Of a stretch of 58,914 nucleotides of DNA, positions 23,222 to 23,599 are shown in pieces. The notes under the pieces are model-generated. The model was not told the DNA's origin and searched no databases. It saw only the letters and a list, made by a program, of their open reading frames with translations. The number at the start of each line of letters is the position of its first letter. Position 1 is the stretch's first letter. This DNA comes from a bacterium (GTDB lineage: Bacteria; Patescibacteriota; Minisyncoccia; UBA6257; JAGOQP01). The stretch spans positions 1-58,914 of the forward strand of contig JAKAIF010000002.1 in assembly GCA_021814445.1 (NCBI GenBank), in the 5' to 3' direction. The position numbers and the translations under genes are program-made.

Positions 23222-23263
23222 GTGCTTATAAGCACTTGACTTTTATCTATAGTGTGCTACAAT
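23222..23263 (+). promoter_or_regulatory. Operator-like 14-nt palindrome abutting a strong sigma70 promoter
   Basis: GTGCTTATAAGCAC then TTGACT-16 nt-(TGc)TACAAT. Confidence 0.55.
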
Positions 23264-23269
23264 GCAGAA

Positions 23270-23557
23270 AGCACCATTAAGAATAGTGGTGATTTCTAAA
23301 TCAAAAAGGGAAAGGGTATTTATATGAGAGTGGCAAGCAAAAAACATTTAGAAAAAACTACAGCTTTTATTAATTAATTCAGCGCCGGCTCGCAGAGATA
23401 CGGAAAGTAAATAAAATCTCTGCGTAGAGAAAATGGTTAAACGGACAAAGCCAGGAGAAAAAGCCTATACACATAGAATTATAAATAATGTGTCTAGTGC
23501 GCCGCTCCGGGCAAGACGGTCAGGTTACAGAGGGATGCTTGAAGGCATCCCTTTTTT
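23270..23557 (+). ncRNA. Orphan ~290-nt transcription unit (candidate sRNA, unclassified)
   Basis: Bounded by the promoter at 23236-63 and the terminator GGGATGC-ttgaag-GCATCCC plus T6. Internal 9-bp stem CGCAGAGAT/ATCTCTGCG. No ORF of 60 aa or more. Confidence 0.35.
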
Positions 23558-23561
23558 ATCT

Positions 23562-23599
23562 ACAACATTCTCACATTCTTAAGAATGTGAGAATGTTGT
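23562..23599. repeat. 38-nt perfect palindrome
   Basis: ACAACATTCTCACATTCTT|AAGAATGTGAGAATGTTGT, between the RNA terminator and the convergent SDR gene. Confidence 0.8.

Follow-up and report, generated by a model that had tools for sequence, protein, structure and literature searches.

Free-standing, species-specific small RNA (sRNA) genes are the closest described counterparts of the locus presented here, which resembles them in being intergenic and ORF-less, in having a strong promoter and terminator, in its length of approximately 290 nt, in its multi-hairpin fold, and in being both single copy and restricted to one lineage. Genes for trans-encoded sRNAs are generally recognized by a promoter and an intrinsic terminator of their own around an ORF-less stretch, and by conservation with compensatory changes in relatives. 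In silico, the first of these is found at the locus, while no homologues were found for the second. The likeness extends to dual-function transcripts, such as SgrS-SgrT, RNAIII-delta-haemolysin, and SR1-SR1P, in which a short 5' ORF is followed by a structured non-coding part and a terminator. The surroundings of the locus also recall the ArsR/SmtB or MarR-type winged-helix autorepressors, given that the genome contains a 91-aa winged-helix gene flanked by an inverted repeat, one further copy of which lies next to the unit.

The locus had been picked out in a preliminary description as an orphan promoter-to-terminator unit, and this is borne out by a credible promoter, a strong terminator, and the lack of any long ORF between them. 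The reading favored here, tentatively and with a probability of roughly 0.45, is that of a single-copy, strain-specific, ORF-less expression cassette, which would produce a young small RNA, perhaps a tiny-ORF or dual-function transcript, from a variable slot in the genome. Its anatomy, the quality of its promoter, the strength of its terminator, its single copy, its absence from relatives, and the variability of the slot are all matters of direct observation.

The slot between the DUF167 and SDR genes

The host of the unit is an uncultured member of the Parcubacteria, with a genome of 694,876 bp (0.69 Mb) in 46 contigs, which is 95% complete. The window, that is, the whole 58,914-nt stretch of DNA analyzed, is contig 40 of this assembly. 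The stretch is present in four DNA runs of a single mine-drainage metagenome study, and the four runs have zero differences over the unit, which is thus not an assembly artefact. In the community DNA, the contigs of other organisms stack on uvrA and on the 38-nt palindrome, where the depth forms a spike, and not on the unit itself. The unit is real, single copy, and specific to this population. The metatranscriptomes of the same study contained no contigs of this organism, those of groEL included.

The genes run in the order uvrA, DUF167, gap, SDR, and rmuC, and the unit occupies the gap, which extends over 451 nt from the stop codon of DUF167 (23174) to that of the SDR gene (23626). The non-coding gap of 450 nt given in the preliminary description is thus accurate, and each of the sequence features listed there was recovered at its position (Table 1). 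The size of the gap is unexceptional, as 21 larger gaps were counted in the same genome by crude ORF calling.

Table 1. Features of the gap and its borders, in positions of the window.
Feature	Position	Strand	Remarks
DUF167/YggU-family gene	22956-23174	+	Pfam PF02594, E 6.8e-17; closes the uvrA-DUF167 unit and borders the gap on the left
Hairpin with perfect 14-nt palindrome GTGCTTATAAGCAC (23222-23235)	23219-23238	+	Terminator-like call; -7.9 kcal/mol, z -2.75
Sigma-70 promoter	23236-23263	+	-35 TTGACT (23236-23241); 16-nt spacer with TAGTGTG; extended -10 TG; -10 TACAAT (23258-23263)
Predicted transcript	23270-23559	+	About 290 nt; single copy; no homologues; 3' end at about 23556-23559
A/U stem	23293-23301/23346-23354	+	9 bp; predicted fold; encloses the SD-like box and start region of the 17-codon ORF
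17-codon ORF MRVASKKHLEKTTAFIN	23324-23377	+	Weak SD-like AAGGG 7 nt upstream
Short closing stem	23384-23387/23517-23520	+	Predicted fold; encloses the next two hairpins
Perfect 9-bp hairpin CGCAGAGAT/ATCTCTGCG	23391-23399/23416-23424	+	9/9 pairs; 16-nt loop
Antisense ORF MCIGFFSWLCPFNHFLYAEILFTFRISASRR	23474-23379	-	31 aa; hydrophobic with a basic tail
Long interrupted G+C-rich hairpin	23450-23512	+	GCCAGGAG...GCCTA.ACACAT / ATGTGT.TAG.GC...CTCCGGGC; predicted fold, z -2.6
Intrinsic terminator	23529-23559	+	11-bp stem and 4-nt loop (hairpin 23529-23554), then T run
Perfect 38-nt palindrome	23562-23599		One of the dispersed copies of a palindrome that is conserved across the order and tied to a small winged-helix (ArsR/MarR-like) gene
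Short-chain dehydrogenase (SDR) gene	23626-24366	-	Pfam PF00106, E 4.2e-44; convergent; borders the gap on the right

The genus and the family share the gene order uvrA-DUF167-[gap]-SDR-rmuC, and the gap itself varies from 13 to 874 nt, with unrelated content. In one congener, for example, the gap is only 86 nt long and contains nothing but a shortened, degenerate palindrome, while that of another, of 865 nt, contains a 77-aa membrane-type ORF together with an ORF of 182 aa. In other genera, the gap is occupied by a plain bidirectional terminator or, in other cases, by unrelated small ORFs of 70-145 aa. Judged from these sequences, the gap between the DUF167 and SDR genes is a variable cassette site. 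Three congeners lack the unit at this same site, which marks it as an accessory insert rather than a conserved RNA gene.

Homologues in relatives, proposed in the preliminary description as a check on the unit, were not found. A BLAST search of 61 relatives returned no match, and a subsequent search of 400 genomes of the order yielded only short, A/T-rich chance matches. Phage records provided no match either, and exact-word searches of genome and viral collections found no homologue, with the only shared 19-mers belonging to the LAEIRK motif of ABC ATPase genes, which did not extend and are coincidental. The metagenome loci reached through the synteny of DUF167 consisted solely of the locus of the congener, with its two ORFs in place of the unit, and no relative of the unit was found in the co-occurring organisms. 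A covariance model of the 3' domain, built from this single sequence and searched over the 400 genomes, gave a best match of 30 bits, which lies antisense within a 162-aa ORF and is thus attributed to chance. Given the lack of any homologue, there is no sign of purifying selection on the unit. A MITE-like mobile element was also considered and rejected, as the unit has a single copy in its own genome and the 9-nt direct repeat that flanks it, TTTTATCTA, occurs at chance frequency and sits within the promoter spacer.

Promoter, predicted transcript and terminators

When only the hexamers are considered, the 10/12 match of the promoter with the extended TG is near chance, with 23 such sites being found in the genome and 17.7 in shuffled sequences. 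Sites of higher quality are strongly enriched genome-wide, however, with nine 12/12 matches being observed in comparison with 0.6 in the shuffles, and ten matches of 11/12 with TG in comparison with 1.2, which indicates that canonical sigma-70 promoters are used in this genome. An extended pattern, TTGACW(ttt)...TAGTGTGnTATAAT, is common to the 19 strongest promoters and is also present in the unit (TTGACTttt...TAGTGTGnTATAAT). When scored with a position matrix trained on these 19 promoters, with the site of the unit left out, the promoter reaches 24.7 bits, which is the highest score of the window and the 12th highest of the genome. Five shuffled genomes reached 20.8 bits at most, and a score above all of the shuffled genomes makes the promoter credible. 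The claim that this is the best sigma-70 match of the window thus holds under the extended matrix, where the rival site at 25443 scores 24.5 bits, and fails under the hexamers, which that site matches 12/12.

The strong promoters of this genome are followed, as a rule, by genes. Among the 27 best-scoring promoters, 25 are followed by an ORF of 50 codons or more, which begins approximately 15-120 nt downstream or, in the case of position 10679 of contig 2, approximately 260 nt downstream, where a credible ORF lies past a long structured leader. The two exceptions are the site of the unit and position 9470 of contig 1. Many of the ORFs behind strong promoters are small and accessory, and several have hydrophobic N-termini that resemble signal peptides. 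As the strong promoters mostly drive single small genes, cassettes formed by a promoter, a gene, and a terminator are a normal unit of this genome. Besides the unit, one other ORF-less cassette, a tiny one on contig 1, was observed in this genome.

The sequence immediately upstream of the promoter is open to two readings. The perfect 14-nt palindrome abuts the -35 element with its 3' shoulder, and had been described as operator-like. While the palindrome is indeed perfect and located at 23222-23235, the operator reading is the minor option. Its centre lies at approximately -41.5 from the predicted start of transcription, a position that is also used by class II activators. The sequence GTGCTTATAAGCAC occurs only once in the genome, however, and the dyad GTGCT-N4-AGCAC (5-4-5) is no more common than in shuffled sequences, while a search with HTH_Crp_2 recovered no CRP/FNR-type regulator over the cut-off. 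With no such regulator and no further sites, a class II activator site of the CRP/FNR type was rejected. The sequence instead suggests that the palindrome is probably the intrinsic terminator of the uvrA-DUF167 operon. Its hairpin follows the stop codon of DUF167 by approximately 45 nt and precedes GACTTTTAT, with an offset T run, and most of the relatives with a longer gap show, in our own reading of their sequences, a terminator-like hairpin approximately 10-40 nt past the same stop codon. Among intrinsic terminators, the palindrome with GACTTTTAT would be a weak example behind the DUF167 stop and, unlike an ordinary terminator, its hairpin overlaps with the -35 shoulder of the promoter downstream, being centred at about -41.5 from its start.

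A weak terminator at this position means that the RNA could derive in part from uvrA-DUF167 read-through, and this opens the way for a reading in which there is no independent gene. In this case, the stretch up to the strong terminator would be the long 3' UTR of uvrA-DUF167, and the promoter match would be fortuitous. The low stability of the first hairpin past DUF167 and the offset of its T run make read-through plausible, and the chance frequency of 10/12 hexamer matches also favors this account. Against it, the promoter fits the extended consensus of the genome and scores above all shuffles, and the operon of the congeners, which lack the sequence of the unit, terminates within tens of bases. 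An extended 3' UTR is, on balance, an improbable explanation.

In the preferred reading, that of an ORF-less cassette, the strong promoter of the genome type (TTGACTttt-N-TAGTGTGcTACAAT) would start transcription at approximately 23270. The predicted fold consists, from 5' to 3', of a 5' hairpin, the 9-bp A/U stem, a G+C-rich 3' domain of two hairpins held within a short closing stem, and the terminator. The RNA would thus fold as a series of hairpins, of which the two at the 5' end are A/U-rich and lie around the 17-codon ORF. Both of the stems named at the outset (CACCA/TGGTG and CGCAGAGAT/ATCTCTGCG) are present, and the transcript would end at the terminator, which had been called strong, an assessment upheld by a fold of -16.4 kcal/mol with a T run (z -4.4), not equalled by any of 200 shuffles. 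This is a textbook example of an intrinsic terminator. The transcript as a whole folds better than shuffled sequences on the + strand, with a z of -3.5 including the terminator and -2.4 without it (1/200 shuffles in the latter case), and the fold of the - strand without the terminator is weaker (z -1.2; 20/200 shuffles). This excess over the shuffles is only moderate for a predicted fold.

The 3' half of the unit has a G+C content of 0.45, in comparison with a median of 0.36 for intergenic regions of 150 nt or more and with 0.11-0.26 for the neighbouring spacers. The + strand has an excess of A + G, like the sense strands of this genome. A crude comparison of duplex energies over 632 start regions gave a best value of -53.6, next to -52.8 for the best shuffled control, with no target standing out from the shuffles. 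We infer that the unit is transcribed and that its RNA has a function. The product would most likely be a young, lineage-specific small RNA that could act through base pairing, or else as a transcript with a tiny ORF or a dual function, and both of the palindromes lie outside the RNA gene.

Coding capacity and known RNA families

The only ORFs in the predicted transcript are the 17-codon ORF, a 13-codon frame that begins with GTG, and a 49-codon frame that crosses the terminator into the 38-nt palindrome, and none longer than 17 codons ends ahead of the terminator. On both the lack of a long ORF and the presence of the 17-codon ORF with its SD-like box, the preliminary description is correct, with the qualification that AAGGG is weak in comparison with the GGAGG or AGGAG usually found in this genome. 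The RNA might nevertheless be the mRNA of a functional peptide of 17 residues, its 3' UTR being long and structured. The ORF is the only one in the transcript with a well-spaced SD-like box, and its distance from the promoter is normal. On the other hand, the weakness of the SD, the hydrophilic nature of the peptide, which has neither signal nor membrane character, and the enclosure of the start region in a 9-bp stem all speak against this account, which would leave approximately 180 nt of G+C-rich structure downstream unexplained. A peptide as the sole product is hence improbable.

The main rival of the small RNA is the relic of a cassette for a small accessory protein gene, in which an ORF of 60-70 codons was destroyed, leaving the promoter, 5' UTR, start codon, and terminator around a functionless transcript. 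The ATG at 23324 lies 60 nt past the -10 element, which is the usual distance in the cassettes of this genome, and the slot holds small ORFs in relatives, with 77 and 182 aa in the congener and 70-145 aa in others. The purine-rich composition of the sense strand of the unit would also fit a former gene, as would the lack of conservation of the RNA wherever it was searched for. Between 23324 and 23528, however, each + frame contains 2-6 stop codons, which is about the random rate, so that the decay would have to be old, and the promoter, the 11-bp stem of the terminator, and three perfect stems of 6-9 bp remain pristine in spite of it. Nor has the 3' half drifted to the low G+C content of the spacers.

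The preliminary description had allowed for a decayed pseudogene alignable to a protein of relatives, and no credible alignment of this kind emerged. A translated comparison with all of the ORFs in the gaps of the relatives, the winged-helix gene, and the ABC ATPase recovered only short peptides at chance level and the TFSHS and LAEIRK motifs. Among 1.84 billion representative proteins, the 49-aa frame matched only two long repeat proteins, neither of them credible, given that the E-values are inflated by the summing of repeat scores of approximately 11 bits each. While a relic is the strongest of the alternatives, it remains unlikely.

The - strand provides one further possibility, that of an antisense or type I toxin-antitoxin-like module, in which the + strand RNA would control the 31-aa peptide or disturb the convergent SDR transcript. 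The peptide is hydrophobic with a basic tail, and the SDR transcript may extend into the unit in the antisense direction, as the SDR gene does not possess its own T-run terminator. There is no promoter-like site on the - strand of the gap, however, and no SD ahead of the 31-aa ORF, while hydrophobic antisense frames are to be expected opposite any A-rich strand, and the peptide has no homologue in the translated comparison. Such a module is very improbable.

Known RNA families were searched at two levels. A scan of the window with Rfam recovered only two tRNAs, and the unit matched no family at the gathering threshold. The permissive scan of positions 23100-23700 with 4227 Rfam models and E-values of up to 10 produced only hairpin-driven noise on the palindrome, with nothing relevant at the unit, and ARAGORN likewise found nothing there. 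The unit is neither the tmRNA nor the RNase P RNA of this genome, which lie on contig 39 (14082-14435) and contig 28 (3498-3943), respectively. A 6S RNA was rejected because the 6S models match nothing in the genome and the unit is missing from the congeners. A riboswitch or cis-regulatory leader was rejected on the basis of gene arrangement, given that the next gene, that of the SDR, is convergent and the next gene on the + strand is 830 nt further. The earlier statements that the unit belongs to no recognizable RNA family, has no tmRNA, RNase P, SRP, or 6S signatures, and is not a riboswitch or leader have thus all stood up.

A divergent housekeeping RNA (SRP RNA, 6S, RNase P, or tmRNA) that escaped the models might still be suspected, since the size of the unit is close to that of the large SRP RNA, and no SRP RNA or 6S model matches anywhere in the genome. 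The SRP RNA models also have no match in the relatives, however, and the M domain of Ffh is absent from nine of the nine genomes tested, while being recovered in 14 of 14 controls. The loss of the SRP in the Parcubacteria has been published (PMC4508563), and a hidden SRP RNA was rejected for a lineage that has neither Ffh nor SRP RNA. Together with the tmRNA and RNase P RNA on other contigs, and with the absence of the unit from congeners, which would not be expected of a housekeeping RNA, this essentially refutes the idea.

The winged-helix palindrome and the comparison with known systems

The perfect 38-nt palindrome that follows the unit had been listed as part of it. It is indeed perfect and located at 23562-23599, only a few bases past the terminator and 26 nt from the stop codon of the SDR gene, although it belongs to a different system, being a multi-copy, order-wide element that accompanies a winged-helix gene. 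Matches of 90-100% identity are found in 34 of 61 relatives, in many families, and with several copies per genome. In the genome of the unit, further copies lie on contig 18 (at 12955 and at 7425-7486, where the arms are split by 30 nt) and on contig 22 (8484 and 8867). The 91-aa winged-helix gene, at 8498-8773 of contig 22, is flanked by the two copies on that contig and recognized by the HTH_27, MarR, and ArsR models, and its last codons (TFSHS-stop) are themselves a palindrome arm. Copies often directly follow terminators or tRNA genes.

When one arm differs between copies, the other shows the matching change (for example, TCTCAC/GTGAGA, TCCGAC/GTCGGA, and TCCAAC/GTTGGA), a symmetry that recalls the site of a dimeric protein. 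On this sequence evidence, the palindrome is a boundary element between convergent units, separate from the RNA unit, and a putative binding palindrome of the small winged-helix regulator of the genome, to which we infer that the protein binds. As its hairpin has an energy of -28 kcal/mol, it could also serve as a second hairpin or, if bound by protein, as a roadblock. For the annotation of the locus, this means that the 38-nt palindrome should be assigned to the winged-helix/palindrome system, and the 14-nt dyad, probably, to a terminator.

Parcubacteria have minimal regulatory repertoires, with very few transcription factors, and we know of no cultured representatives. Given this, the unit would be among the first candidate regulatory RNAs in the Parcubacteria (CPR), if it is both transcribed and functional. 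A broader proposal, which is speculative and rather improbable, is that the Parcubacteria routinely carry exchangeable, ORF-less RNA cassettes in slots for small accessory genes, often beside the winged-helix palindrome, with a turnover too fast for homologues to be found, in which case the unit would be one working example of a fast-evolving layer of riboregulators. For the time being, the unit is a modest, unproven candidate of a known kind, that is, an orphan sRNA-like unit.

The comparison with the described systems also reveals the differences. In contrast with the 12-2-12 operators of the ArsR/SmtB or MarR-type autorepressors, the palindrome beside the unit is far longer (32-38 bp) and perfect. 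It is also 90-100% identical across the families of an order, and its copies are scattered over gene boundaries, where they follow terminators and tRNA genes, as well as promoters. In comparison with SgrS-SgrT, RNAIII-delta-haemolysin, and SR1-SR1P, the ORF of the unit is short, at 17 codons, and preceded by a weak SD, and conservation is lacking for the peptide and the RNA part alike. The known free-standing sRNA genes differ from the unit in that the latter is known from its sequence only, has no homologues, and is hosted by a CPR bacterium, in a slot that holds cassettes of protein genes in its relatives.

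Repeats at and beyond the orphan unit

The orphan unit, a predicted promoter-to-terminator unit of about 290 nt in the gap between the DUF167 and SDR genes, is accompanied by an exact 9-nt direct repeat, one copy of which follows the hairpin of the 14-nt dyad, while the other follows the terminator hairpin. This repeat is not read as a target duplication, given that its frequency is about that expected by chance for 600 A/T-rich bases, and that one of the copies lies within the spacer of the unit's promoter.

The palindrome conserved across the order has further copies in the genome, one of them split, with a 515-aa ORF on one side and a 279-aa ORF on the other. 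A second copy is located between two tRNA genes, and in a congener, another copy lies directly 3' of a tRNA gene.

Features in the window and on other contigs of the Parcubacteria genome
Feature	Location	Details
Direct repeat, 9 nt, exact	window 23241-23249 and 23554-23562	TTTTATCTA; copies 313 nt apart
Conserved palindrome, split copy	C18:7425-7486	arms 30 nt apart; insert GCTTGCCCACCGAAATTTTAATGAAGGAGG
Conserved palindrome copy	C18:12955-12986	between tRNA-Cys and tRNA-Leu genes, both on same strand
Strong promoters (examples)	C29:17995; C32:7293; C2:9900; C2:10679; window 25443	extended consensus

DNA on either side of DUF167

The uvrA-DUF167 spacer (window 22838-22955) is extremely A/T-rich (G+C 0.11-0.22), and AATTTCTA-like words recur in it. 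A length polymorphism is suggested by contigs from two DNA runs that skip 28 bases of this spacer, from 22883 to 22912. In two relatives belonging to genus g13 (L039 and L040), the DUF167-SDR gap contains DNA (approximately 600 nt) that is markedly rich in G+C and has small ORFs of the membrane type on its opposite strand; this DNA looks foreign in these A/T-rich genomes.

Strongest promoters of the genome

Genome-wide, TTGACW(ttt)-N-TAGTGTGnTATAAT is the extended consensus that the strongest promoters have in common. In the majority of cases they drive single small accessory genes, several of which encode signal-peptide-like N-termini. Contig C2 has three extended-consensus promoters in tandem within 1.5 kb. 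On the minus strand of contig C1 (9400-9470), a 12/12 promoter leads straight into a ~50-nt hairpin and a T run, with no ORF. Downstream of this promoter, a stretch of about 760 nt, also ORF-less, is flanked by the copies of a 40-nt direct repeat, AATTCACCAACATTGCAAAACAAAAACAGCCCGTGAGGGC (C1, ~8710 and ~9515).

Signal recognition particle

Across this whole genome and 8-12 relatives, neither the SRP RNA models (RF00169 and RF01854) nor the Ffh M domain (PF02978) had a match in any genome tested, while the control genomes all scored. This is consistent with the published absence of the SRP in Parcubacteria (PMC4508563).
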